This document shows positions 39,466 to 56,001 of a stretch of DNA of 64,000 bases, piece by piece (the first letter of the stretch is position 1; every line of letters starts with the position of its first letter). Under the pieces are notes generated by a model. It worked only from the letters and a program-made list of their open reading frames with translations. It had not been told where the DNA came from and did no database searches. Source of the DNA: Candidatus Nanosyncoccus sp. (GTDB taxonomy: Bacteria; Patescibacteriota; Saccharimonadia; Saccharimonadales; Saccharimonadaceae); contig JAZUOY010000015.1 of assembly GCA_045604885.1 (NCBI GenBank), forward strand, positions 1,424-65,423, read 5' to 3'. A program made the position numbers and the translations under genes.

Positions 39466-40170
39466 CTATCTTTTTAGGCCAGCGTCTAAGTATTTTTTGA
39501 CATAATCCCATCCCCAATTATTGTCAAAGCCGCTAGTTGTGAAATTGCCAAATTTAAAATATGGTAGTCCGCCACCAATTAAATTCCAAGCGCGTTCGGT
39601 ATCCTCTGTTACTTTAGACAAGAGCTTGTGCTCAGAAATACAACTTTCAAAAGTCTCACTTAAACCGATCGACTGACCAATTTTCAGCCAGTAGTTATCT
39701 GGTAAATCTTCTATTGGTTCTGAGGTTTTTGATACGCCGATTCCTTGTGATTGATAATCATCCCAGAGTGCTGCCAGTGCAGCATGATAGTATTCCCAGA
39801 ATTTCCCCTCGTCTTTTGCGCAATAAATTGCTTCAGCGCTATTGCGGGACATTTCGCTATGATTTTCGCCGTATTCGTAGAGTATATCTGTTACGCGAAC
39901 TTCATATAAAATATCTTTCCCGACGATATAATCTTTTTGGAATTCGTCCTCATGCTTCATGATTGCGCGCGAAAAAGCGCTACAGTATGGACAGGCAAGA
40001 TCAGTATACATAATATAATAGTTTTTTGCATCTAATGCTCCGATAGTAGCGTTTTCGTCCCAGACACTATCTGAATGATTGGTCTTTGTAGAAGAGCTAT
40101 AAATAAATAATGCCACCAGCAAAACCGCAATAACACCAATAATAATCCATTTAATGGCTTTTTTCATCAT
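39466..40170 (-). CDS. Membrane-anchored DsbA/thioredoxin-fold protein; probable start 40170 or 40167
   Basis: YTDLACPYC active site, AEAIYCA, GGGLPYF; AAGGAGG RBS. Confidence 0.88.
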   Translation of the reverse strand: MMKKAIKWIIIGVIAVLLVALFIYSSSTKTNHSDSVWDENATIGALDAKNYYIMYTDLACPYCSAFSRAIMKHEDEFQKDYIVGKDILYEVRVTDILYEYGENHSEMSRNSAEAIYCAKDEGKFWEYYHAALAALWDDYQSQGIGVSKTSEPIEDLPDNYWLKIGQSIGLSETFESCISEHKLLSKVTEDTERAWNLIGGGLPYFKFGNFTTSGFDNNWGWDYVKKYLDAGLKR

Positions 40171-40795
40171 CCTCCTTTTTCTTCTGACGCCACTGTTCAT
40201 CTTTTATTATAACATAGCTCTCTACGCCAACCCTTTTGATTGACAGTAATAAGATGATAATTGCGACACCAGTTAAAATGCCTGATATTGCTCCGGCTAT
40301 CGCATAACTTCCACTAGAGAAAATAGAACCGATAATGGGCGTAATTAAGGCAGTGCCACAAGTAGGGCAGCCACTTCCAAGTAATGCAAGCCCAGCTGCA
40401 ATACCGGCGTTCTGCACAGATGAGGCAGAATCATTTTGTTCGTTTTGCTTAGGTTTGGTATTATTGAGTCGTTTTTTCCAGACTAGAACAATGAGAGAAA
40501 TAAGAGTTGCCTGTAAAAACGTAATAGAAAATAATAATAGCCAGTCCCAGAAAGTCTTGCCAACTCCAAAAAGTGATAAGAGGCTATCTCTTAAGATGGT
40601 AATTTTGCCTTCTAGATCGGTAGCGAAGAACAAATTAAGAGGTCCAAATCCGCCCGATAAGAGGCTAAGTAGGATACCAAATATTACAAAAACCATTAAA
40701 AAAACAATCCAGAAACGAAGTCTTCTAGTGGCAAGTATGATGCCGAGTATGGCAAGATGCCATTCATCACACCATTTTGCGATCTTTTTTTGCAT
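40151..40795 (-). CDS. Integral membrane protein with a CxxC motif (GCPTCG)
   Basis: Four hydrophobic segments; overlaps the DsbA-like gene. Confidence 0.8.
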   Translation of the reverse strand: MQKKIAKWCDEWHLAILGIILATRRLRFWIVFLMVFVIFGILLSLLSGGFGPLNLFFATDLEGKITILRDSLLSLFGVGKTFWDWLLLFSITFLQATLISLIVLVWKKRLNNTKPKQNEQNDSASSVQNAGIAAGLALLGSGCPTCGTALITPIIGSIFSSGSYAIAGAISGILTGVAIIILLLSIKRVGVESYVIIKDEQWRQKKKEDDEKSH

Positions 40796-40949
40796 AAACT
40801 TATTATAGCATCTAGAAGACTAACTTAGAAAAATATGGGAGATCAATTTAATTTCCTATAATAATATTAAAATTTGTCAAGGTGATTTTGTTTGGTTGCC
40901 TCTGTAAATTACAACAATTTTATATCATCAAAAATCTTAAAAATCAATA

Positions 40950-41089
40950 TTGACACAGTATTTGCTCATGCTAAAATAGAATTAGGGTAAGGGCGAAGTT
41001 GAGAGCCGTCTTTCACCCGTGGAGTTTCTAGCTTAGATCAGTTCACCTAGAAACGCAAAAAAGTGCACCCATAAAAAGGTGCATTTTTT
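40950..41089 (+). ncRNA. Candidate small RNA: promoter, two hairpins, terminator
   Basis: TTGACA (40950) and TG-TAAAAT (40972); stems 40985-40995/41007-41018 and 41024-41031/41047-41054; terminator 41057-41089; no ORF. Confidence 0.45.
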
Positions 41090-41144
41090 ATGAAAATAAC
41101 GACTAGCTATTGAAAAAAATCACAAAATGTGATATAATGAGAGT

Positions 41145-41876
41145 ATGGAACGCTTTTCTAGAGAAAAATACGAAGATTTTTTAAAAAAGATAGATTTAGC
41201 GAAATATCGAGAGAAGTATGCTAAGGTGAAGACTGTGGAGATGGATTTGCCATACGAAATTCAGGCTTTGCCAACAATTTATGCTGAGTACTGGGATAAC
41301 GTGAACCATAGAGAGGAACCACTTTCCTATGAGGAATATTACAAGTTATATTGGAATTCTTGTAAAGATGAGATTATGGCATTTCGTAAGAAAACTGGTT
41401 TTGGCGAAGATTGTGATTGTTATGAACGTGGCTTAGAAGCAAGAATCTATCGCACCTGGGCATCTTTAATTACTCAGATTCAGGGTGGATACGTAGCTGA
41501 GGAGGTTTTTGGCAAGGGAAGCGTCAGAATGAGCCCTGAGCTTGATCGTAAGAAAATTGATATTATGATCGTTAATAAGGATGGCAGTGAGCGTTTGCGG
41601 ATTCAAGTCAAAAAAGTTACTCATCGTCCAGAAATTGCCAGGATGCATAAGAATGTGAGAAATGAAAATGGTTCCGTAGATTTGTATTATGTAGTACCAT
41701 CTCCGCGTAATTATGAGCATCCGACCTATCTCATTAATGGTCGTAATCACAAAAGAGGCGAATTACGTCCATTTACGAAAGATTTCGTGAAATGGAATCC
41801 GGCGACCGCAACTATGGATAGACTAGATAATGGATTTATCATTTTCACAAAGAATGCTTTTTTGGGACTAGAATAA
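41145..41876 (+). CDS. TaqI-family type II restriction endonuclease
   Basis: KY..VKTVEMDLP, GLEARIYRT..S..TQ and PELD...ID...IQVKK match my recollection of TaqI-family motifs. Confidence 0.8.
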   Translation: MERFSREKYEDFLKKIDLAKYREKYAKVKTVEMDLPYEIQALPTIYAEYWDNVNHREEPLSYEEYYKLYWNSCKDEIMAFRKKTGFGEDCDCYERGLEARIYRTWASLITQIQGGYVAEEVFGKGSVRMSPELDRKKIDIMIVNKDGSERLRIQVKKVTHRPEIARMHKNVRNENGSVDLYYVVPSPRNYEHPTYLINGRNHKRGELRPFTKDFVKWNPATATMDRLDNGFIIFTKNAFLGLE

Positions 41877-43062
41877 TTTGGTAGTCGGGGCTTAGCCCCT
41901 TTTGCGTTAAAAAGGATCGTAGGCGATAGTCTAGAATTTGGTCAATGCTCGGTTTGATGCCCAGCTCCTGACATTTTTTGTAAGCAGTAGATTTTCGTGA
42001 GACAATCTCTGGGATTTGGACAAGGATATATTTATTATTGCGTCCATCTTCCAGGTTGGTCTCGTAAACTGCTTGACCAGTTGATCCAGACCCAGCAAAA
42101 AAATCTAAAATGATAGAGTTAGAAGTATTAGTCATGCGAATAAAATATTTTAGCATTTCTACTGGCTTCGGAGTATCAAAAATCCCTTGTAATCCTAATC
42201 TTTTGAGGTCATGTGTGCCTTGCCGTGAATAAAAATTAAGAATTGATGGAACATTATCTTCACTTTCTGTAAGGTATTTGATGGCGTAAGGGCGACCGTT
42301 TTTGAAATTGAGGCGATGTTTTTTCGCAAGTTCTATAAAATGTTCATCGGTAGCCCACCCTCTTGTCGGTAAAGGACTGAGGTGAAGATTGATAGACGGA
42401 ATATCGACTGCTCGGGGGGTACTAGGAGTAGAAAGATCTACGGCGAAAAAAATCCTACCCTTGTTATCTAACTGTGAATAATTTCTCAGCCACGTGATGT
42501 TTTGCTCATGACAGATAGACTTGATTCGTTTCGTAAGAGTTTTTTCTGCAGCGGATCTGCCTTGTTGCTTGAAAATAGTTTTAATTTCATTTTGAAGATC
42601 ATTGATCATTTGTTTTTGCTCCGGAATATCCGTGCGATGTACTATAAATTTCCGAATATTCTTCCTGTTTTTTGCATAACAGAGGACATATTCATGAACG
42701 GTGTTAATTAATTTGGAGTTACTACGCTGAGCTTGTTTGGTGATAAAGGTGCCAATAAAATTTTCGCTTCCAAAAACGCCATCACAGCAGATTCTCAGAT
42801 GAGGAAATTCGTTATCGTCTATAGAAATTAAAATCACCGCATCATCCGCCATGAGTCTTCGAGCTGCCTCTAAACGTGCGTGTATAAAAGCGACCCAATC
42901 ATTGCTGGTATTCTTATCTTTGTAGCTTTTCTGGGTCTGAGTATTATATGGTGGGTCGATGTAGATTAAGTGAATTGCATTCTGGTATTTCGTTAAAAAA
43001 TCAGAATCTTGCATTACATCAAGATTGTCTCCAATATAGACTTCATGATTAAGCGATTTCAT
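41845..43062 (-). CDS. Beta-class (Mod-like) amino DNA methyltransferase; probable start 43062
   Basis: IYIDPPYN precedes TPKP and LDFFAGSGSTG; convergent with and overlapping the REase. Confidence 0.92.
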   Translation of the reverse strand: MKSLNHEVYIGDNLDVMQDSDFLTKYQNAIHLIYIDPPYNTQTQKSYKDKNTSNDWVAFIHARLEAARRLMADDAVILISIDDNEFPHLRICCDGVFGSENFIGTFITKQAQRSNSKLINTVHEYVLCYAKNRKNIRKFIVHRTDIPEQKQMINDLQNEIKTIFKQQGRSAAEKTLTKRIKSICHEQNITWLRNYSQLDNKGRIFFAVDLSTPSTPRAVDIPSINLHLSPLPTRGWATDEHFIELAKKHRLNFKNGRPYAIKYLTESEDNVPSILNFYSRQGTHDLKRLGLQGIFDTPKPVEMLKYFIRMTNTSNSIILDFFAGSGSTGQAVYETNLEDGRNNKYILVQIPEIVSRKSTAYKKCQELGIKPSIDQILDYRLRSFLTQKGLSPDYQIILVPKKHSL

Positions 43063-43102
43063 TAAGGTCATTATAACAAAAAAGGTCTATTGCGACCAAT
43101 TT

Positions 43103-43187
43103 TGGTAGCCGAGACGGGACTTGAACCCGTATGAATTTCTTCATTCGATTTTAAGTCGAACGCGTATACCAATTCCGCCACTCGGCC
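43103..43187 (-). tRNA. tRNA-Leu (TAA)
   Basis: Anticodon arm TTCGA-CTTAAAA-TCGAA, long variable arm, CCA end. Confidence 0.96.
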
Positions 43188-43440
43188 AATTTTGCTTGGA
43201 GGACTATTCAACCCAAATGTTGAACCATCCCTTATTATTTTATCAGAATATCTTTGTAGTGACAAGTCGGCGGAGTTAATGGAATATACTCCTCTCTCTA
43301 GAATAGAGGTGGAAAGGGCTAGGGCGATGGAGGATTATGTCTTATAACGTACCAACTAAAACCTAATTAAACCATTTGTTACCTAGCATAGTTCTCCCAC
43401 GTCTCTCTCAAGCGCCCGAAGGGCGCTGTATTGGTTAGCC

Positions 43441-43579
43441 TGGTGAAATCGGGCGCTCATCAAACCCGTTTGTTTGGAATGATAGTGTATATCTAATACT
43501 GGAGATTACTTTGGTTGGAGTGCGGTCCTCTTCACAGGCAGGTATTGTCTTTTTAATGGTGAAATCGGGCGCTCATCAA
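43441..43579 (+). repeat. 23-bp direct repeat tggtgaaatcgggcgctcatcaa (43441-43463 / 43557-43579)
   Basis: Exact match at 116-bp period; weaker similarity continues for about 25 bp. Confidence 0.93.
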
Positions 43580-43844
43580 GCCCTTCCTGTTTAGATATAT
43601 GAGTATACCCTACCTAGGGACTCCCAGGCTACCCCGTTTAGGACGAAATACGTGCCTTATTTGCTAGCATCTTTGGTGATTTCGTCTGGTAGTATCACTC
43701 GTGTAGTTTCTTTGGATTTATTTTACTAACAGATTAGTTCATATGATAGCAGGGTTTTCCCGCCCGGCCTGCTTTTAATTAAAACACTCTACCGCTAGCA
43801 TTGTTTCTCTGATGTTTTTTCTTGGTGGCTGTTGATGCTAGTGC

Positions 43845-43873
43845 TTGCCATGATTAAAATTATCTGGTATAAT
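43845..43873 (+). promoter_or_regulatory. Sigma70-type promoter
   Basis: TTGCCA-17 bp-TATAAT with a TGn extension. Confidence 0.8.
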
Positions 43874-43881
43874 CATGGCAT

Positions 43882-44003
43882 CATCCAATTCCCACATTTA
43901 CAACTCAAACGGTAACCCAGAGACCTACATAGCGTCCAGAAAGGATGTCACGTAGGTACATAGGGCACTATGCTCTAGGTTACCGAAAAGTGGGAGTTGG
44001 ATG
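43882..44003 (+). ncRNA. Candidate structured RNA / leader (multibranch)
   Basis: Nested stems 43882-43895/43990-44003, 43910-43922/43973-43985, 43923-43928/43952-43957, 43959-43963/43968-43972. Confidence 0.6.
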
Positions 44004-44053
44004 CTAACACCTCGTGGCATCCTTTTTGTGGATGTTGCAGAAAGAAGGATACT

Positions 44054-44887
44054 ATGCAAGACCACAGCGATAATCAACAACCCCAGCCTTACCGAGTCAG
44101 AGTTGGCTGTTTCGTGACACTTAGAAACAATGATGATAATCGCGTCACTAAGTATAAAGTAGTAAGGTCGCTATACTCGTCAAATAATGCGTGGGCGGAA
44201 ACAAGCATTAAGGAGACTCCTACTTCTGGGAGTCTTTCTGTAAGTTCCCCACTTGGAGCTAGTCTGATTGGAAAAAAAGCTGGTGACATTGTTGGCAAAT
44301 ACAAAGTCATGCTAATAGAAGGTGGCGACCATGTAGTGCAAAATATTCAAGACTCGTATGAGCAGGATACCGCTGATAAAGCTAATAAGCTAAAAATGCT
44401 ATTGGAAAAGATACGGTCTGGAGAATGGGTCAAAGCATACGTTACGCGCATTCATCACGTCTGCATCCCAGTCAAAACTCGTCGCGCCAACATTAAGACC
44501 TCATTCCTTCCTGACGGTGTTATGGAGTCTATCGTTATATCGAACATGGCAGCCGAGGCAACAAATCTCTATAGGATAGATTTGTTTCTCTATCTCGACG
44601 ATGACCATGAAATTGGTGCCATGGCGGAAATGCTAATTGAGCGAGACACAGTGAGTGTTCTATGTAGCGACGTTCATAATCCATTGCCAAAAAATTGCTT
44701 AAACGAGAATTATGATTATGTCGTTGCTGATGAACAATCCTCTGAAGAGGGGATGGAATTAGTTCATGGTTTAGAAGTAAAATTATCGCCTGAAGACAGT
44801 AGCTTCACATGTAGGACCGCGCCTCACTCGACAACTAATCACCACTACATGAGAATAGTCCACGAGGACAGTTGTGAGTGTTATTAG
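44054..44887 (+). CDS. Protein with an N-terminal GreA/GreB C-terminal-like domain plus an unknown domain; probable start 44054
   Basis: VRVGCFVTL...LSVSSPLGASLIGKKAGDIV; aagga RBS before ATG 44054. Confidence 0.7.
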   Translation: MQDHSDNQQPQPYRVRVGCFVTLRNNDDNRVTKYKVVRSLYSSNNAWAETSIKETPTSGSLSVSSPLGASLIGKKAGDIVGKYKVMLIEGGDHVVQNIQDSYEQDTADKANKLKMLLEKIRSGEWVKAYVTRIHHVCIPVKTRRANIKTSFLPDGVMESIVISNMAAEATNLYRIDLFLYLDDDHEIGAMAEMLIERDTVSVLCSDVHNPLPKNCLNENYDYVVADEQSSEEGMELVHGLEVKLSPEDSSFTCRTAPHSTTNHHYMRIVHEDSCECY

Positions 44888-45467
44888 TGTTTTTGGAAAA
44901 ACGGAATACGCAAGTAGTAGCACGATTGGCGTCGCTATGTTTTTCGGTATACTTGCAACAGTTTTTTTATTTTTCCTAGCTAGCTCTAAAAACCACAACA
45001 AAACGACTAGAAATAGAAAGCACAACACCTTTGTGTATCGACCTCGCTCGATCAATGATGTACAGGAGCACCAGAGAATTAGACGCTGGGAGATAAAGCG
45101 CGCTGCTTTTGAGGAACAAAAGAAAACACCATTCTTCAAAGACTGGAAGCGCGAGCAATATCAGTGTCAATATGGTAAGTGTGCTTGGTGTAGGAAGTCG
45201 ATAGACCTTCATTCGCCCGATACCCAAGTCGATCATATTAAGCCATTGATGTGGTGGGGGACTAATGAGTACGATAACTTGGTTCTAGCTTGTAAAGAAT
45301 GTAATGAGGAAAAAGGCGATAGTCAATTTGGCTGGGCTGGTGCTAAAGGCATGCCTGGCGAGAATAGAAAACCAGCCTGGATTAGGCCTAATAGATGCTG
45401 TAGAAATTTCAAAGAGCAGAACTCTCAGACAGTATCATATACTACTCTGAACTCAGACAAGCCTTAG
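44874..45467 (+). CDS. Membrane-anchored HNH endonuclease
   Basis: N-terminal TM helix; CAWC...VDHIKP...GTNEYDNLVLACKECNEEKG. Confidence 0.88.
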   Translation: MSVISVFGKTEYASSSTIGVAMFFGILATVFLFFLASSKNHNKTTRNRKHNTFVYRPRSINDVQEHQRIRRWEIKRAAFEEQKKTPFFKDWKREQYQCQYGKCAWCRKSIDLHSPDTQVDHIKPLMWWGTNEYDNLVLACKECNEEKGDSQFGWAGAKGMPGENRKPAWIRPNRCCRNFKEQNSQTVSYTTLNSDKP

Positions 45468-45569
45468 AGAGCCTCTTATGGCCTCACAGAGGGTGTTTTG
45501 ACGGGGTGTTTTTGAGGTTGTCTTTCTCTTCGGAGGCTTTAGCCGACGAAAGCGCGTTAGCGCTTGCCC

Positions 45570-45598
45570 TTGCCTTAGTGTTTTAGACTTGATACAAT
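45570..45598 (+). promoter_or_regulatory. Sigma70-type promoter with no downstream ORF
   Basis: TTGCCT-17 bp-TACAAT with a TGn extension. Confidence 0.72.
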
Positions 45599-45604
45599 GA
45601 AGTC

Positions 45605-45990
45605 CTACACAACGGTATCAGGTAAGGAACGCTGGTACTGTGCTAGCTGAAATAATGCTAGGAGGAAACGCACCTTCCCGTGGTGGGCTGGCTAATGATT
45701 TCCTCGGATAGGTTGCCCATTGCTAAAACAGCCTTGATGGTAGCAGTAATGCCTGGACTAGTAGGCATGAAGTATCATCTGCCACACTATTGTAGCAAAA
45801 GGCGGACAATGGTTTTAGCGAATAATCCGATTCCAAGCCTGACGAAAGCAGGTTGCCGATGGACCTTCTAGCTGCCTTGGCACTAGGTCTGTAGGCAGAG
45901 GGATTATTTGCTATGCCAAAAAAAGCTAGCATAAATACAGGCGAGCAACATGAAGCTGGGAGAAACCTCGGCAAGCTGGTGACCTACCTT
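45605..45990 (+). ncRNA. Candidate large structured ncRNA (~385 nt)
   Basis: About ten stems, many with G-U pairs, downstream of a clean promoter; no credible ORF. Confidence 0.55.
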
Positions 45991-46108
45991 AAGTCTATAG
46001 AAGAGAAAAATATAACGCGATTCAAGGGTGATTCTTCCAGTAGTATGGTTGAGCCTGTTAGCGGCATCACAATTCTCTTTTAGAAGTGTTTCTGGTATAA
46101 TGATGGTA

Positions 46109-47677
46109 ATGTCATTGCTGCCAGGAGAGATAGATAAGACCAAGCTACGTTACATTGTTTACGTGCGCAAATCTACTGATGAGAAGGGAAAGCAGGAGAG
46201 GTCTGTTGAGGACCAAATCGCTGATTGCCTAGACTTAGCCAAACGTAGAGGGTTAAATATTATTGGTGAGCCTATTGTTGAAAAGCGTTCTGCTAAGGTT
46301 GATGGAGGCAGACCACTTTTTGCTAAAATGATTAAATTAATTCGTGACGGTAAGGCTGATGGCATTATTTCCTGGCATCCGGATCGTTTGTCTCGTAATC
46401 CGATTGATGCGGCCACGATTGTAGACATGCTGGACAAGAACATAATCAAAGACCTTGCCTTCCCTACTTGTGAGTTTTCAAACGACTCCAGCGGCAAGAT
46501 GCTACTCAATATATTATTCGCTATCTCAAAGCAATATTCGGAGCATATCAGCGAGGGTGTTACTCGTGGGCTTCGTAGAGGTCTTCAAGAAGGAAAATCT
46601 CAAGGTCGTTACGTCTGGGGTTATACCCGTAGCAAAGAAACTGGACTATATGAGCCAAGTGAATATTTTGAGATTGTCCAAGAAGCATGGGAGATGAAGG
46701 TGAACGGTGCTACGGATGCCGCAATTCTAAAGTTCTTAAAGAAAAATAATCTACGGAGAGCGGTCGAATCAAATCCTGGAAGATTTATAGAGCCTGTCAA
46801 GGAAACCCCAAAGAACATCTTCAAGAACCCAATTTACTATGGTGTTTTGGAGCAGGCAGGACAAGAAGTGGACCTAATTGAAGTTACTGGTGGCGCTTTT
46901 CAGCCTATGATTACTTATGAAACCTTTGCCAAAGTACAAGCTATGGAACGTAGCGGCAAATCGCATGGTGGGCGCAAGAAATCTGGTGGTATTTTCTACC
47001 CACTAAAGCACATGGTAACTTGTGGCGTCTGCAACCAAACTATGGTCGTCTATAAAAGCCGTAGCGGCCATGGGAAACGTGCTAACTACTTGTATTTTGA
47101 GTGTAGGAATAAAGATTGCACTCGTAGTCCCAAGGCTATAAGAGCAAGGGAAATATTTGAGCCGCTATTTGAAGCTGTCCGCCAGTTGCAGTTTACTGAG
47201 GAAGAAATAGAGAAATACAACCAAGAGATTGATAGCTTTAGCGAAGAGAGAATTGTTGAGCTACGTCAGGAAAAGAATAGTATAACTGCCGCTATTGCCC
47301 ACAAGAACAAAGAACTTGAGAAACTGTCTCTTAGCACACCCAATTTGACTAGTAGAGCATTAACTCTAATACGAAAGAGGATTGATTCGCTGTCCAATGA
47401 ACTAGATGAACTTGAGGAGAGCTCTAAATCTATTGATGCTCAAATAAAATCAGCTCAGCGAAGTAAGGTTTCTACTGAGCAAGTGTTGAACCTCCTAAAA
47501 ACGCTTCCTGACAAGATGGAGAATGGCTCCGCCGCTGAAAAAGATGCGATTGCCCGATTATTGTTATTGAACCTCACTATTGACGCACAAAAAAGGCCTC
47601 ATTTCCTCTGGAAAGAGCCTTTTGCTAGTCTGCTTGAATCCCGAAAAGGTGATTCTGGAGGCGCCTACCGGAATTGA
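46109..47677 (+). CDS. Large serine recombinase (resolvase, recombinase, zinc ribbon and coiled-coil domains); probable start 46109
   Basis: YVRKST catalytic motif, DRLSR, CGVC...C...C zinc ribbon, coiled coil; own TG-TATAAT at 46096-46101; last codons are antisense to tRNA-Cys. Confidence 0.93.
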   Translation: MSLLPGEIDKTKLRYIVYVRKSTDEKGKQERSVEDQIADCLDLAKRRGLNIIGEPIVEKRSAKVDGGRPLFAKMIKLIRDGKADGIISWHPDRLSRNPIDAATIVDMLDKNIIKDLAFPTCEFSNDSSGKMLLNILFAISKQYSEHISEGVTRGLRRGLQEGKSQGRYVWGYTRSKETGLYEPSEYFEIVQEAWEMKVNGATDAAILKFLKKNNLRRAVESNPGRFIEPVKETPKNIFKNPIYYGVLEQAGQEVDLIEVTGGAFQPMITYETFAKVQAMERSGKSHGGRKKSGGIFYPLKHMVTCGVCNQTMVVYKSRSGHGKRANYLYFECRNKDCTRSPKAIRAREIFEPLFEAVRQLQFTEEEIEKYNQEIDSFSEERIVELRQEKNSITAAIAHKNKELEKLSLSTPNLTSRALTLIRKRIDSLSNELDELEESSKSIDAQIKSAQRSKVSTEQVLNLLKTLPDKMENGSAAEKDAIARLLLLNLTIDAQKRPHFLWKEPFASLLESRKGDSGGAYRN

Positions 47678-47729
47678 ACCGGTGTAAAAGGTTTTGCAGA
47701 CCTCTGCGTAACCACTCCGCCAAAGCGCC
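47656..47729 (-). tRNA. tRNA-Cys (GCA)
   Basis: GGCGCTT...AGAGG-TCTGCAAA-ACCTTT...AGGCGCC-TCCA. Confidence 0.95.
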
Positions 47730-47821
47730 ACAAGTATATTTTATCATAAGATAGGAGAAAACGAAATCCCCGTTTTTTTCTTGCTTATTTAGTTAGTCTT
47801 TGGTATAATGAAACCAGATAT

Positions 47822-47898
47822 GCGAATGTAGCTCAGTTGTTTAGAGCGCTTCCTTGCCAAGGAAGAGGTCGAGAGTTAGAGTCTCTTCATTCGCACCA
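47822..47898 (+). tRNA. tRNA-Gly (GCC)
   Basis: Anticodon arm CTTCC-TTGCCAA-GGAAG; atypical T-loop TTAGAGT; CCA end. Confidence 0.92.
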
Positions 47899-47904
47899 TT
47901 TTTT

Positions 47905-48798
47905 TTACTTGTTTTTTATTTCTACCAAACTTATTTCAGCGGCCTTAATGAAATTTAGGGACTGACCGATTTTCGGTGCACAAAATTGGGCGCCGACCAT
48001 GCCAGGGTTGATCAAGGCGAAGGTGGATTGACTAGTCCTAAACACCCCCCTAGAGTGTCGTGGTAGAGGCATACGATTTGGTGAAATTAGTCCACGATGA
48101 ATATGTAATTTCGCAAAAATTTCATCTAAGCCCTTCGGTACGATACCGCCATGTGTGTGCCCGAATGATAAGATGTCAAATATACTTAATTTCTCGGCGG
48201 TTTCTTTGATTAGATATGGTGCATGAGCAGCGAACCAATTGATTTTTTTATCATTGACAGGGGAAAAATCGTAATCTTTGACTTGTCTATAAAATGCACG
48301 GGGATTATCGCGAAATTTTTGTTTTTCCGTGATCATACATTTCTCATTCTGAAAGGCTCCAAAAATACGAATTTTGGGCGTTTCATACCATTCATCACAC
48401 AAAAGTTTTACGCCGGTTTTTTGGCAGATTTTCCGCCAAAATGGTAGCGCAAAGTCTTTCATAATTCTTGCTGGATTGGTTGGAGTAATGTAATCATGTG
48501 AACCAAGTACTAGCACTGTAGGTGCAGCTTTTACACAGAGACGGAGGCTAGCAATTAATTTTTTGAGAGAAGTCTCACGTTTTAGTTCGGTAGGACTATC
48601 AATGAGGTCGCCCTGTAGAATTATCACATCAGGTTGTGTTGCTTCTAATGCTTCTTTTAAATAATGATATTGTCGGTCGGAAACGATTGGACTAATATGC
48701 CAGTCACCGGCGATCATCACTTTGGTAGTTGCAATATCACGATTCAATGTGATGCTGTGTAGGCGAACTTTCAAGGTATTTGGCTCATGCAAATTCAT
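47905..48798 (-). CDS. Calcineurin-like metallophosphoesterase (YkuE-like)
   Basis: GDWH, QGDLID, LGSHD, AH, GHTHGG motifs. Confidence 0.9.
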   Translation of the reverse strand: MNLHEPNTLKVRLHSITLNRDIATTKVMIAGDWHISPIVSDRQYHYLKEALEATQPDVIILQGDLIDSPTELKRETSLKKLIASLRLCVKAAPTVLVLGSHDYITPTNPARIMKDFALPFWRKICQKTGVKLLCDEWYETPKIRIFGAFQNEKCMITEKQKFRDNPRAFYRQVKDYDFSPVNDKKINWFAAHAPYLIKETAEKLSIFDILSFGHTHGGIVPKGLDEIFAKLHIHRGLISPNRMPLPRHSRGVFRTSQSTFALINPGMVGAQFCAPKIGQSLNFIKAAEISLVEIKNK

Positions 48799-48894
48799 TT
48801 GTTTTATTATATCATTTTTGTTATAATTAATATATCTAGATAGAGAACGACTCTCTGTTTGGGTGTGGAATAATAATTATCAAAGGAGGAAAAA

Positions 48895-49473
48895 ATGAGC
48901 GCAGGTGCAGTTGTGGCGATTGTGATAGGTGCCATTGTATTATTCGTTATTATTTTAATCTGGAGCAGTTACAACAGTTTAGTACGTTTGGATGAACGTG
49001 TCAACGAGGCTTGGTCTGATATTACCGTTCAACTTAAGCGCCGTTCTGATTTGATTCCGAATCTCGTAGAGACAGTAAAGGGCTATGCTAAGCATGAGAA
49101 TGACGCTATCCAGGCCGTATCAGATGCACGCGCCAAGATGATGGGTGCTCGTTCTGTTAAAGATACCGCCGAGGCAGACAAGTCATTCATGGGTGCGCTC
49201 TCTCGCATTATGGCAGTCACAGAATCCTATCCAGAACTAAAGGCGGATAAGAATTTCCAGCAACTTTCTTCTGAGTTGTCAGATACGGAGGATAAGATTC
49301 AGGCGGCGCGTCGCTATTACAATGCCGGAGCAAAAGATCTTAACACCAAGATTAAGATTTTTCCGATCAATCTTTTCCACGGTTTTGGCTTTAAGAAACG
49401 CGAATATTACGAAGTCGCAGAAGACGAAAAAGCTAAGATCCAGAATGCTCCAGAAGTGAAGTTTGACTCTTAG
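48895..49473 (+). CDS. lemA: LemA family protein
   Basis: AWSDITVQLKRRSDLIPNLVETVKGY, YPELKAD, ARRYYN. Confidence 0.96.
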   Translation: MSAGAVVAIVIGAIVLFVIILIWSSYNSLVRLDERVNEAWSDITVQLKRRSDLIPNLVETVKGYAKHENDAIQAVSDARAKMMGARSVKDTAEADKSFMGALSRIMAVTESYPELKADKNFQQLSSELSDTEDKIQAARRYYNAGAKDLNTKIKIFPINLFHGFGFKKREYYEVAEDEKAKIQNAPEVKFDS

Positions 49474-49489
49474 GAGGATAATAATCATC

Positions 49490-50345
49490 ATGATGCAAAA
49501 GCAGATTGCCGCTAATAAAAGAAATACAATCTTCGTAATTCTTTTCTTTGTAATACTGATTGGAATAGTCGGTGCTGTTTTTGCATATATTTTTCGCGAT
49601 GTATGGGTAGAGGTTTGGATATTGTTAATCGCAGTTATTTATGCTGTGATCCAGTATTTTGCGGCCGGATCTATTGCGGTAGCAATGACTGGTGCGCATG
49701 AAATACAGAAAAAAGATAACTCAAAACTCTATAATATAGTAGAAAATCTTGCGATTACGGCTGGGTTGCCAATGCCAAAAGTCTATATCATTGACGATCC
49801 AGCTCCAAACGCCTTTGCAACTGGTCGCGATCCGAAGCATGCCCTCGTAGCGGCGACAACTGGTCTGTTGGATGTTATGGATAAAAGCGAGCTTGAAGCA
49901 GTGATGGCGCATGAGCTATCTCATGTTAAAAATTACGATATTAGGGTTTCTATGATCACTTTCGGTCTCGTCTGCGTGGTGGGATTTATTGCCGACATTG
50001 GTCTGAGGATGATGATTTTCAACGACCGTGATGATGACAGAAGTCCAGTAGGTGCAGTCATTGTACTATTGACCGCTATTTTTGCGCCAGTTGCCGCTTC
50101 GTTAGCGCAACTAGCCGTTTCAAGAGAGCGGGAATATCTTGCTGACGCTTCTGCTGTCAATATTACGCACTACCCAGATGGAATGATTAACGCTCTAAAA
50201 AAATTAGAGACTCATTCGCGTCCGATGAAGCGTCAAAACTCTGCCACAGAAGCATTATATATTAACAATCCACTCAAGAAAGGAAGAATATCTAATCTAT
50301 TTAGTACTCATCCTCCGCTAGAAAAACGCATAGAGAGATTGGAAA

Positions 50346-50365: not shown

Positions 50366-53334
<2,969 letters not shown>

Positions 53335-53354
53335 AAACGCCTGTTTTGTGAGAG

Positions 53355-54653
53355 CTACTGTGTCAAGAAAAGGTCTTTTGCTCGTGTGATACCAAGTTTG
53401 GTGTTCGCTTCTGCGATTCTCATTAGTTCATTATATTTTGCAATTCTTTCAGAACGAGAGAGCGACCCAGTTTTAATTTGACCAGCGCCTAATCCAACTG
53501 CTAGATGGGCGATGGAAGTATCTTCTGTTTCGCCAGAGCGATGAGAGATAATCGTATTGTAACCAGCTTTCTTAGCGGTCAACACTGCGTCTATAGTTTC
53601 TGTTAGGGAGCCAATTTGATTTGGCTTAACTAGAATAGCGTTAGCAACACCTTCCTTAATACCTTTTTTGAGTAATTTTGTATTGGTGACAAATAAATCA
53701 TCTCCGACTAATTGACACCTTTTTCCGAGACGTGCTGTCATATCTTTCCAGCCGTCCCAGTCGCTTTCTGAAAGACCGTCTTCAATTGACACGACCGGAT
53801 AATTATCTAAGATCCAAGTGTACCAGTTAATAAGATCATCAGCTGTTTTCCAATCGCCATTAGTTTTTAGCTCGTAGTGGTCATAATTATAAAACTCAGA
53901 CGAGGCAATATCCATGGCAATACAGACTTCTTTGCCTAAAAGATAACCGGCTTTCTCAATAGCAAGTTTGATACATTCTAGAGGTTCATTATCGCCGTCG
54001 CGCACATTTGGTGCATAACCGCCTTCGTCACCTACCGTAGTTGGGTAGCCACGTTCTTTCAAGATGGATTTCAGTGCATGAAAAACTTCTGCGCCAATTT
54101 GCATAGCTTCGTTCATACTGGTAGCACCAACTGGGATGATCATGTATTCCTGAAAATCCGTACTCCAATCGGCGTGAGCGCCTCCATTCATAACATTCAT
54201 CATTGGGAGCGGAAGAGACATTTGGTTGGTGGTACCAGCAAGTTCAGCGATGTATTCGTAAAAATATAGCTTTTTTGCCTTTGCTACGGCTTTGGCGGTC
54301 GCAAGAGAGACTGCTAGAATAGCATTGGCACCGAGTTTGGATTTATTTTCCGTGCCGTCCAAGTCTAACATTAGCTGATCTACAATTTTTTGTTCGGCAG
54401 AATTGCCTACAAGGACATCGCGAATTTTAGAATTGACATTCCAGACGGCTTTTAAAACGCTTTTGCCATTGTAGTATTTTTCGTCACCATCACGTAACTC
54501 TAAAGCTTCACCAGATCCAGTGGAAGCGCCAGATGGTACGGCTGCTCTTCCTATATGTCCACTATTTAAATAAACATCCGCTTCTACGGTCGGATTACCA
54601 CGGCTATCCAAGATTTGCCGTGCCTTAATATCAGAAATTGTAAATTTATCCAT
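53355..54653 (-). CDS. eno: Enolase
   Basis: [40 protein letters not shown] motifs. Confidence 0.98.
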
Positions 54654-54723
54654 AATATCATTATAACACTTATGCTAAAAATAACTTAAAAATAGGAAAA
54701 AAAGAAATGTTATAATATAGAAA

Positions 54724-56001
54724 ATGACAGATGCACTCAAAACGAAACTGAAGACTTTGCCGGCTGCTCCGGGTGTTTATTTTCATAAAAACAGAGATGG
54801 AGAGGTTATTTATGTTGGTAAGGCGGCAGTTCTAAAGAATAGAGTAAGGCAGTATTTTCAGAATACAGAGAAAGATCCCAAAACTACCGCTTTGGTAGCG
54901 GAAATCTATGATACGGACTGGATCGTGGTGGATACAGAAATGGATGCACTCTTTCTTGAATCAGAAATGATTAAGCGATACATGCCAAAGTGGAACATTC
55001 TTTTAAGGGATGATAAAACAGTTTCTTATGTTCGGATAGATATGAAATCAGAAGTACCGTTTGTCTCATTAACGCGTCAACCGCAGGATGATAAAGCGAC
55101 TTATATCGGACCATTTTACGCTAAAAATACCGTCTTGACGGCATTGAGGATTCTACGTAAAGTTTTTCCGTACTATGATAAGCCTTACGATGGCAAAAAA
55201 ACGCTTAATACGGATCTTGGATTAACTCCTGGCATAGAGGTCAATAAAACTACGCCTGCTGAATATAAGCAAAATCTGCGTAAACTTATACGCTATCTTG
55301 AAGGTGATAGGCAGAAATTGATTAAGGAATTAGAAAAAGAAATGAAGAAAGCGGCGGCACTAGGAGATTATGAGAAGGCAGTGGAGTATAGAAATCAGTA
55401 TTTTGGACTAAAGGGATTAAAGAAAAAAATTGTATTCTCCGATAAGGAGTTTTTGGATATTTCATCTGATCAAGCATTGCGGCAATTACAACGTCTTCTT
55501 CAGTTAGACGAGCCACCTCGCAGGATAGAGGGTTATGATATCTCCCACGAGCAGGGAACAAATGTAGTAGCTAGCATGGTGGTGTTTACGAATGGTGCAT
55601 CTGAACGGACGGAATATCGCAAGTTTAAGCTCCGTCATCAGAAGAATGATGATGCGGCAAATATGCGAGAAGTCATAGAACGCAGACTTAAACACCACGA
55701 ATGGGCCTTTCCTGATCTTATCATTCTGGATGGCGCGGAGGGGCAAATTAGTGCAGTCTGGGATTTGTTAAGGGAGGTCAAAATTCCAGTTATTGGGCGT
55801 GATAAATCAGGTGATCATACAAAAAATGCTAATGTAGTAATTGTAATACCCGTAGTTAGCGATGATGGCACTAGCTTTCGCCATGAGGTGTTACCGCCAG
55901 ATTCTCACGTCGCAAAATTAATTGCCCGAATAGATGATGAGTCACATCGTTTTGCAATTTCTTACCATAGATTACTCAAACGTAAAACTATGCTAAAATA
56001 A
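54724..56001 (+). CDS. uvrC: Excinuclease ABC subunit C (short, no HhH tail)
   Basis: GIY-YIG region (PGVY...YVGKA..LKNRV), UVR domain, RIEGYDISH, PDLIILDG, DESHRFAI. Confidence 0.93.
   Translation: MTDALKTKLKTLPAAPGVYFHKNRDGEVIYVGKAAVLKNRVRQYFQNTEKDPKTTALVAEIYDTDWIVVDTEMDALFLESEMIKRYMPKWNILLRDDKTVSYVRIDMKSEVPFVSLTRQPQDDKATYIGPFYAKNTVLTALRILRKVFPYYDKPYDGKKTLNTDLGLTPGIEVNKTTPAEYKQNLRKLIRYLEGDRQKLIKELEKEMKKAAALGDYEKAVEYRNQYFGLKGLKKKIVFSDKEFLDISSDQALRQLQRLLQLDEPPRRIEGYDISHEQGTNVVASMVVFTNGASERTEYRKFKLRHQKNDDAANMREVIERRLKHHEWAFPDLIILDGAEGQISAVWDLLREVKIPVIGRDKSGDHTKNANVVIVIPVVSDDGTSFRHEVLPPDSHVAKLIARIDDESHRFAISYHRLLKRKTMLK

Follow-up and report, generated by a model that had tools for sequence, protein, structure and literature searches.

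A probable tRNA-targeting serine-recombinase cassette between the tRNA-Cys and tRNA-Leu(UAA) genes of a Candidatus Nanosyncoccus genome

The window analysed here is a stretch of 64,000 nucleotides from Candidatus Nanosyncoccus sp., a part of contig 15 (JAZUOY010000015.1) of a 689-kb genome that is 98% complete and has gut Saccharibacteria (TM7) assemblies as its nearest public relatives. In the window the genes for tRNA-Leu(UAA) and tRNA-Cys(GCA), each present in one copy in the genome, are separated by a compact segment encoding a large serine recombinase. The tRNA genes were called by ARAGORN and Rfam, both in agreement. Very probably, the segment 43203–47661 is a site-specific integrative cassette of 4,459 bp, belonging to a family of tRNA-targeting large serine recombinases, the border being uncertain within a 6-bp core. 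The case for the insertion is carried by comparative data and not by the 6-bp repeat at its ends.

Borders of the cassette and the empty site

The hexamer TGGAGG occurs at both ends of the segment (the attL and attR cores in Table 1), exactly where an earlier note on this DNA had placed it. The minus-strand tRNA-Cys gene has the 3' end ...GGCGCC-U-CCA, and deletion of 43203–47661 in silico yields tRNA-Cys, a 9-nt spacer and tRNA-Leu(UAA), that is, the Cys–Leu tandem which the same note expected upon removal of the intervening DNA. By itself the 6-mer repeat is weak, with a chance of about 0.4% in a 20-nt target zone.

The comparison with related genomes suggested in the earlier note does reveal empty or near-empty sites, as the tRNA-Cys and tRNA-Leu(UAA) genes are adjacent in five relatives with spacers of 6–83 nt. 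Four of these same-strand tandems come from the genus (6 nt in G019, 12 nt in G015, 81 nt in G003 and 83 nt in G022), and the fifth, with a spacer of 11 nt, from G027, a member of another family. The note had also named an observation that would speak against an insertion, namely, relatives lacking the recombinase and retaining the intervening DNA; among 400 family genomes, none contains a counterpart of the left 858 bp of the element.

Sister elements were identified on metagenome contigs. The 2,206-bp contig L021 encodes a recombinase 79% identical to that of the window and crosses the predicted circular junction in a single blastn high-scoring segment pair, with positions 41–1636 corresponding to 46069–47662 of the window and positions 1647–1876 to 43214–43454. 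The joint reads ...ggtgattcTGGAGGcccaaac... and is devoid of tRNA sequence. This contig appears to be the attP form of a sister element, that is, the form with joined attachment (att) sites. Since L021 joins the 3' end of the recombinase gene to the left end of the element, both borders are fixed to the hexamer. The second contig, L022, encodes a recombinase that is 89% identical and has the same ...GGAYRN end, and it continues into tRNA-Cys and then tRNA-Gly. Judging by this arrangement, it is a sister element integrated at the same tRNA-Cys/tRNA-Gly site as the one in the window. Taken together, the empty sites in relatives, the attP-form sister and the other sister at the same tRNA-Cys bear out the claim of the earlier note that an integrative element splits an ancestral tRNA-Cys/tRNA-Leu(UAA) tandem.

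We also considered whether the element extends past tRNA-Leu into a TaqI-type restriction-modification pair; this was rejected, as L021 runs from the recombinase end straight into 43203 onward. The pair itself, a TaqI-type restriction endonuclease (41145–41876, plus strand) and an N6/N4 DNA methyltransferase (41845–43071, minus strand), is situated directly left of tRNA-Leu. Neither gene is matched by tblastn in a survey of 20 genus loci, and the pair probably represents a second insertion, specific to the strain, that borders on the same tRNA cluster.

The gap between tRNA-Cys and tRNA-Leu is occupied by other DNA in two further genomes: G009 has a 1.35-kb insert with one open reading frame (ORF) of 441 aa, and G011 has a 2.7-kb insert with three glycosyltransferase-like ORFs, neither insert containing a recombinase. 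The gap seems to be a recurrent insertion hotspot. A different feature is seen next to tRNA-Cys in G003, G022 and G009, where a module of about 67–70 nt (1430–1510 of locus L002 in G003) is bounded by duplicated (T)TGGAGGCGCCG, the last 11–12 nt of tRNA-Cys. The module contains a palindromic GGCGCC pair, which could fold into an acceptor-like minihelix with UCCA at its end; an older element may have left the module behind as a scar, or it may be a small feature akin to a tRNA.

The recombinase, its att sites and its partner

The recombinase has an N-terminal catalytic domain of the resolvase type (PF00239, E-value 1.3e-23, with the catalytic serine and, near the N-terminus, the YVRKST motif), followed by a Recombinase domain (PF07508, 1.2e-6) and a zinc ribbon (PF13408, 3e-5). 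The score of the latter, 24.8 bits, is slightly below the cut-off of 25.3, and the CxxC...CxxxxC pattern is present. Residues ~350–490 produce coiled-coil-type matches. The protein matches a PHROG integrase family (1.7e-68), and its catalytic domain aligns to the solved domains of serine integrases, namely, the TP901-1 integrase and a conjugative-transposon recombinase. The NCBIfam similarity to CcrB and CcrA is weak (7e-20 and 9e-14, respectively), far under the cut-off. The ratio of nonsynonymous to synonymous substitution rates (dN/dS) against the two sister copies is 0.058 and 0.066, and the gene is under strong purifying selection.

Three copies of the family are present in the genome, the two paralogues, 40–41% identical, being located beside tRNA-Val(cac) and tRNA-Asn. 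Homologues are found in 25 of the 121 genus genomes. The stop codon is situated inside a convergent tRNA gene in 31 of the 35 homologues surveyed, with an overlap of 10–57 nt and, in one case, 100 nt; the overlap with tRNA-Cys in the window is 22 nt. Among the surveyed members, the targets are tRNAs for Val, Leu (three isoacceptors), Phe, Ile, Lys (two), Pro, Ser and Ala (two). Together with Cys in the window and Asn beside the paralogue on contig 17, the family targets at least 14 tRNA species, and its cargo varies from island to island. Scans of genome and metagenome contigs gave recombinase relatives only 31–50% identical, at other tRNA targets, and no relative was seen in the viral contigs scanned.

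Three loci of this family have features of their own. On contig 10, approximately at 50400–55525 (locus L014), there is a third island. Its recombinase ORF extends 43 nt into tRNA-Val(cac), and a small ORF of 77 aa and unrelated cargo come before it. On contig 17 (20129–20400; 1233–1500 of L015), the 19-nt 3' end of tRNA-Asn, TCCCACCCGGATCACCAGA, is repeated 174 nt downstream. The repeat falls within the 3' end of the paralogous recombinase gene, which reads through it and encodes a 565-aa protein with a long tail; this looks like a tandem or remnant arrangement preserving an attP-like joint in the chromosome. Finally, an 82-kb Saccharibacteria contig (L071/L072, 9001–10689) encodes a 562-aa long-tail recombinase with no tRNA downstream, its neighbours being GyrI-like, TfoX_N and isochorismatase genes. 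Here an attP-type gene is intact in a chromosomal context.

The only sequence common to attL, attR, the attP of L021 and the attB of the relatives is TGGAGG, hence the 2-bp crossover would be situated within this hexamer. Since attP carries the same TGGAGG, the tRNA-Cys gene would be rebuilt intact upon integration. The 6-bp shared core is consistent with recombination of attP and attB by this enzyme with a 2-bp crossover. In the P' arm, both in the window and in L021, the heptamer TTGAACC begins 17 nt past the core, and the same heptamer in the B' arm, where it belongs to the T arm of tRNA-Cys, begins 12 nt past the core. Rutherford et al. described that the motif bound by the zinc-ribbon domain is 5 bp nearer to the centre in attB than in attP (PMC3783163), and for the P' and B' arms the difference between 17 and 12 nt appears to be this inward shift. 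The mirror position of the P arm, likewise 17 nt away from the core, has the sequence TTCAAG. A blastn-short search with the 75-nt reconstructed attP against 40000–50000 returned two element ends only, with no internal spare copy. A 12-nt direct repeat, AA(G/A)GGTGATTCT (46024/47645), was tried as a second site and rejected, since chance alone would give some 20 matches of this kind over 4.5 kb.

In the integrated form, the recombinase ORF enters tRNA-Cys and ends with ...DSGGAYRN. Across the circular junction, the P' arm is in phase with this ORF and remains open for 47 codons. As the recombinase gene spans attP, integration would swap a 47-residue tail for GGAYRN. The recombinase of L021 (P0004, 563 aa) has a homologous tail of equal length, with 25 of the 47 residues identical. 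Distant long-form homologues (P0008 from L074, P0020 and the first recombinase of L026) have tails of 43–47 residues following the same pattern, that is, a hydrophobic helix soon past the junction and an acidic-aromatic end (EDYVL, DTYIL, QDFIY, PRYEL, EEFIY). The dN/dS of the tail is 0.60, and its dS is 0.60 versus 2.5 in the recombinase body. The tail is likely to be a genuine portion of the free-form enzyme that evolves fast, and we infer that its exchange could control the activity of the recombinase.

A small ORF of 56 aa is located directly upstream of the recombinase gene. It raises the number of genes in the element to four, where the earlier note counted three ORFs. The ORF is kept in L022 and is under purifying selection, with dN/dS of 0.125, and its end is visible in L021. 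More than 20 loci of the family have a small ORF of the same pattern, ...NLxxLVxYLxxI... with the terminus G-x-V/I-x-F/Y, just upstream of the recombinase. The protein yields no match in any library searched (PHROGs, PADLOC and NCBIfam among them). It may be a partner of the recombinase, acting as a directionality factor or a regulator.

Since the tRNA-Cys and tRNA-Leu genes of empty sites may be only 6–12 nt apart, they must be co-transcribed there. A predicted promoter at the P' end of the element faces outward (Table 1) and places the start approximately 43 nt upstream of tRNA-Leu. The block 43241–43268 (~28 nt) is identical in the window and L021, whereas the surrounding region is only 73–76% identical; the counterpart in L021 is TTGTCA-17-TAGAAT. 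Most likely, this promoter restores transcription of the displaced tRNA-Leu. The suggestion of the earlier note that the element may have to supply this transcription is supported in silico by the conservation of the promoter.

We propose the following scheme. The attP of the element would have recombined with an attB whose centre is the CCA end of the only tRNA-Cys gene. This would keep tRNA-Cys intact and move tRNA-Leu(UAA), with which it had been co-transcribed, to a distance of 4.46 kb, the transcription of tRNA-Leu presumably being restored by the outward promoter. The core module consists of the 56-aa protein and the recombinase, whose reading frame passes through attP: the circle would produce the enzyme with the 47-residue tail, and the chromosome would provide six codons read antisense from tRNA-Cys instead. 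The cargo is a two-gene operon, preceded by a strong predicted promoter and by a leader with extensive predicted structure. As the element has no transfer or replication genes, it presumably spreads passively, through transduction, hitch-hiking or cells taking up the excised circle.

A further-reaching interpretation, which we offer as tentative, is that the recombinase gene is an integration-state switch. Only the circle would encode the full enzyme with the C-terminal module of about 45 residues, and the truncated chromosomal form would need the 56-aa partner in order to excise. Combined with the promoter donated to tRNA-Leu, such a switch would turn the cassette into a gene shuttle that regulates itself, is neutral to the host and spreads in Patescibacteria by DNA uptake.

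Several observations weigh against our interpretation. The assembly contains no contig with the attP or attB variant, and the joined-ends form is known from the sister L021 only. Close sister elements number only two, both on short metagenome contigs, and L021 could derive from a tandem array instead of a free circle. The B arm, formed by the spacer and the 5' end of tRNA-Leu, has no recognisable recombinase motif and varies among genomes. The tail seems nearly neutral at the protein level, and constraint at the DNA level (the attP arm and the promoter) may explain much of its conservation. At that, the outward promoter is a predicted consensus match, not a mapped start site.

Non-coding DNA, cargo genes and alternative readings

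Table 1. Features of the cassette and of its flanks, in order of position in the window.
Feature	Position	Strand	Description
tRNA-Leu(UAA)	43103–43187	-	flanking host gene; severed from tRNA-Cys by the insertion (ARAGORN, Rfam)
attL core TGGAGG	43197–43202		9 nt from the 5' end of tRNA-Leu
P' arm of attP and detached recombinase tail	43203–43347	+	47 codons; TTGAACC at 43220–43226
Predicted outward promoter	43265–43237	-	TTGTCA-17-TAAAAT; aimed at tRNA-Leu; 10/12, TG-extended -10
GC-rich hairpin	43411–43427	+	also kept in L021; may terminate the full-length recombinase gene of the circle
Two 27-nt direct repeats	43441–43583		TGGTGAAATCGGGCGCTCATCAA(A/G)CCC; 116 nt apart; 118-nt spacing in L021
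Predicted cargo-operon promoter	43845–43873	+	TTGCCA-17-TATAAT; 11/12
Predicted structured leader	43880–44053	+	174 nt; outer stem of 14 bp around a multibranch domain, followed by a terminator-like hairpin (43999–44022)
Cargo gene 1	44054–44887	+	277 aa; N-terminal GreA/Gfh1/Rnk C-terminal-like domain and a ~180-aa domain of unrecognised type
Cargo gene 2	44874–45467	+	197 aa; HNH nuclease, one N-terminal hydrophobic segment; GTG start overlaps the end of gene 1
Promoter-like sequence and untranslated stretch	45570–45912	+	TTGCCT-17-TACAAT; ~310 nt untranslated, before the small ORF
Small ORF	45913–46083	+	56 aa; directly upstream of the recombinase
Large serine recombinase	46100–47677	+	525 aa (ATG 46100) or 522 aa (ATG 46109); last 22 nt antisense to tRNA-Cys
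attR core TGGAGG	47656–47661		reverse complement of the last six bases of tRNA-Cys (CC-U73-CCA)
tRNA-Cys(GCA)	47656–47729	-	integration target, kept intact (ARAGORN, Rfam)
tRNA-Gly(GCC)	47822–47898	+	neighbour of tRNA-Cys (ARAGORN, Rfam)

The non-coding DNA of the element amounts to about 1.15 kb, less than the 1.5 kb given in the earlier note, and the description of it as structured holds in part, as only some of it folds better than shuffles. The leader of the cargo operon has the predicted fold of -72.5 kcal/mol (z = -7.66 versus shuffles for 43880–44060), in which the ribosome-binding site is also paired. The stretch 45604–45915 folds moderately well (z = -3.1). It is not part of a conserved non-coding RNA: this possibility was rejected for the region 45570–45990, since the 89%-identical sister L022 has an unrelated sequence in its place. 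The region 43348–43845 folds no better than shuffles (z = +0.5); it shares sequence blocks, the hairpin and the two direct repeats with L021 and, repeats included, is probably protein-binding DNA rather than structured RNA. An Rfam search over 40–50 kb at E <= 1 found three tRNAs only, with no match to HEARO, group I or group II introns, retrons or riboswitches.

The -10 region of the cargo promoter, TCTGGTATAATCATGG (43863–43878), recurs at the recombinase promoter (46091–46106). The 16-nt motif common to both is TCTGGTATAAT(C/G)ATGG, which hints that the cargo and the recombinase are under common control. As the candidate start codons of the recombinase, ATG 46100 and ATG 46109, are at or just past the -10 box, its mRNA may be leaderless or near-leaderless.

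The product of cargo gene 1 matches PF01272 above the cut-off (3.9e-8), and its profile matches the structures of Gfh1, GreA and Rnk. It bears the S-x-x-SP-h-G-x-A-L-h-G motif of the C-terminal globular domain of GreA/GreB/Gfh1/Rnk. The GreA-like domain is at residues ~10–99 with nothing ahead of it, that is, there is no N-terminal coiled coil reaching the polymerase active site, and full-length GreA models give 28 bits against the cut-off of 139. An exhaustive search retrieved five distant relatives among 1.84 billion representatives, a word-indexed search retrieved only the protein itself, and a profile search added one relative, P0125, on a 1.4-kb contig. The family has few invariant residues and no obvious catalytic motif. 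No true homologue is present in 200 family or 400 phylum genomes, where all matches are housekeeping GreA, and there is no match in PHROGs or by tblastn against 50,697 phage records. AlphaFold2 run on the single sequence resulted in a predicted local distance difference test score (pLDDT) of 30. By domain likeness, cargo gene 1 may represent a near-orphan family of the RNA-polymerase-docking type.

The HNH protein encoded by cargo gene 2 is probably membrane-anchored. Its HNH domain resembles, at the domain level, those of PtuB, Cas9/IscB and retron-linked nucleases (PADLOC E-values of about 1e-7 to 1e-8). Among 300 family genomes, only G022 has a homologue. In that genome the interval between tRNA-Gly and tRNA-Cys (L050, 6042–8293) contains three minus-strand genes encoding proteins of 342, 231 and 185 aa, and the last of them, 39% identical across the HNH core, is this homologue.

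Together, the two cargo genes may constitute a new accessory system. A possible, if doubtful, role for it is anti-phage defence, with the GreA-like protein docked on RNA polymerase to sense a phage takeover and releasing or activating the membrane HNH nuclease in abortive infection. The kinship of the HNH domain to the nuclease of Septu (PtuB) and to Cas9/IscB and retron-associated enzymes agrees with this, as do the overlap of the two genes under one strong promoter, the restriction-modification or ATPase-type cargo of sister islands of the same recombinase family, and the foreignness of both genes to the bacterial family. However, PADLOC finds no complete system, no PtuA, and no model for the GreA-like protein or for the pair; P0125 has no neighbouring HNH gene; the GreA-like family shows no obvious catalytic motif; and neither PHROGs nor the phage records reveal a phage association. 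The description of the element in the earlier note as a minimal defence or satellite island is thus unsupported, there being no PADLOC system match and no satellite hallmark gene.

The same note stated that replication, transfer and phage genes are absent, and indeed no replication, transfer or phage structural genes are seen in Pfam, PHROGs or NCBIfam. In particular, these three libraries yield no relaxase domain, a hallmark of integrative mobilizable elements; an origin of transfer could be missed by sequence alone. We consider it improbable that the element is an integrative mini-plasmid (episome) that also replicates itself, with its origin in 43348–43845 and one of the uncharacterised proteins as the initiator. 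The sister L021 was assembled in the attP, not the integrated, configuration, and the putative origin region, which has no RNA fold, keeps its blocks and repeat spacing (116 versus 118 nt) in two elements sharing 74% identity. However, a single 2.2-kb contig cannot separate a circle from a tandem dimer, the repeat has two copies only, there is no AT-rich unwinding stretch, and the four proteins contain no Rep, primase or helicase domain.

Still less probable is a fixed, immobile remnant of a larger element (a prophage, an integrative and conjugative element (ICE) or a longer island) that has shed most of its genes. The very small size and the absence of transfer, replication and phage genes would fit such an origin, as would the recombinase-less inserts and short scars in the Cys–Leu gap of G009, G011, G003 and G022. 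On the other hand, purifying selection acts on the recombinase and the small ORF, neither of which is damaged, the two att arms are intact as well, there are no internal pseudogene fragments, and L021 unites the same two ends in the same layout, so that the short form is itself the moving unit.

Finally, a phage satellite packaged by a helper, whose HNH nuclease cleaves the packaging site, is very unlikely. The element is small and non-autonomous, and in some cos phages HNH nucleases cooperate with terminases, but the cassette has no primase or replicase, repressor, or capsid-, terminase- or packaging-redirecting gene (PHROGs match only the integrase and HNH), relatives of the recombinase are absent from viral contigs and of the GreA-like protein from phage records, 4.46 kb is far under known satellite sizes, and the HNH protein appears to be membrane-anchored.

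Significance and comparison with known systems

Genomes of Saccharibacteria are about 0.7 Mb in size, and little has been written on gene gain in them. The locus described here is a cleanly delimited example, for which the two att junctions, an empty site and a sister in attP form are all available, and in which a serine rather than tyrosine integrase aims a four-gene cassette at the tip of a tRNA. It features two adaptations to a tiny genome: the single tRNA-Cys is left intact, and the displaced single tRNA-Leu(UAA) is apparently re-promoted. The natural attP/attB pairs of the family, found on different tRNAs, could serve as integration tools in these bacteria. The cassette also offers a testable instance of an integrase C-terminus depending on the integration state, and if the switch is real, the family would be a source of compact tRNA-directed integrases as well. 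A literature search in a limited collection turned up no publication that describes integrative elements of the serine-recombinase type for Saccharibacteria or other Patescibacteria.

Elements of this kind, serine-recombinase islands that occupy the 3' end of a tRNA-type gene and whose integrase ORF runs across the att site, are already known. The closest published account is that of the Dehalococcoides ssrA islands with the recombinase DsiB (McMurdie et al. 2011, PMC3146451). As in those islands, a serine recombinase (of ~540 aa there) is encoded at the island edge, a tRNA-like gene present in one copy receives the insertion at its 3' end, which the recombinase ORF overlaps on the complementary strand, the cargo is variable, and conjugation genes are absent. 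McMurdie et al. also raised the question whether DsiB is complete only on the circular element (PMC3146451). Unlike the ssrA islands, which target transfer-messenger RNA (tmRNA), the cassette uses a true tRNA, and many tRNAs are used across its family; the crossover is at the CCA tip and not in the T loop, and the repeat is 6 bp instead of 20 bp. The six-gene integration module of the ssrA islands (DsiB, DsiA, RecF-like, ParB-like, Mom-like and one more), which lies next to their att site, is absent here. The cassette proteins contain no second recombinase and no ParB or RecF domain, and the core consists of one recombinase and the 56-aa ORF. In the cassette family generally, a single recombinase is accompanied by a conserved protein of 45–60 aa, and the likeness to DsiB is drawn from its published description.

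Integration into tRNA genes by serine recombinases has been described in other bacteria. Those of Mycobacterium actinomycete ICEs (AICEs) use tRNA-Leu and that of phage phiRSM1 uses tRNA-Ser, such cases being called rare (Ghinet et al. 2011, PMC3218068); in 2014, serine recombinases using tRNA genes were stated as "not known" (PMC4383910). The cassette shares this type of integration with AICEs and phiRSM1. However, AICEs carry replication and transfer genes, and phiRSM1 is filamentous with a small resolvase-type enzyme, whereas the 4.46-kb cassette is neither.

As in the staphylococcal cassette chromosome (SCC/SCCmec), cargo is moved only by large serine recombinase, the 3' end of a conserved single-copy gene is used and the gene kept active, and the element has no transfer genes of its own. 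Unlike SCC/SCCmec with its CcrA/CcrB pair, the cassette has a single recombinase, inserts at a tRNA gene and not at rlmH, is much smaller and belongs to a different phylum. In the streptococcal ICEs targeting rumA, one flanking direct repeat is within the serine integrase gene (Ambroset et al. 2016, PMC4701971), hence the att site overlaps a single serine integrase ORF, as it does here. Unlike the cassette, those elements are conjugative and insert in a protein-coding gene.

The recombinase resembles phage serine integrases (A118/LI, phiC31, Bxb1, TP901-1) in its domain architecture, short att sites and, as far as TTGAACC of the P' and B' arms is concerned, the 5-bp shift of the attB motif (PMC3783163). 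In contrast to the cassette, these phages hit protein-coding or intergenic sites, have attP outside int, and carry full phage genomes. Mycobacteriophages such as BPs display integration-dependent immunity: attP is inside a coding sequence, and integration alters the C-terminus and thereby the behaviour of the protein. In these phages this is a repressor gene and the integrase is of the tyrosine type, whereas here the serine recombinase itself is altered, with a putative functional effect. What is distinct in the cassette is the phylum, the spread of the family over many tRNAs, the two-gene core, the crossover at the CCA tip, the size of 4.46 kb, the apparently donated promoter and the orphan cargo.

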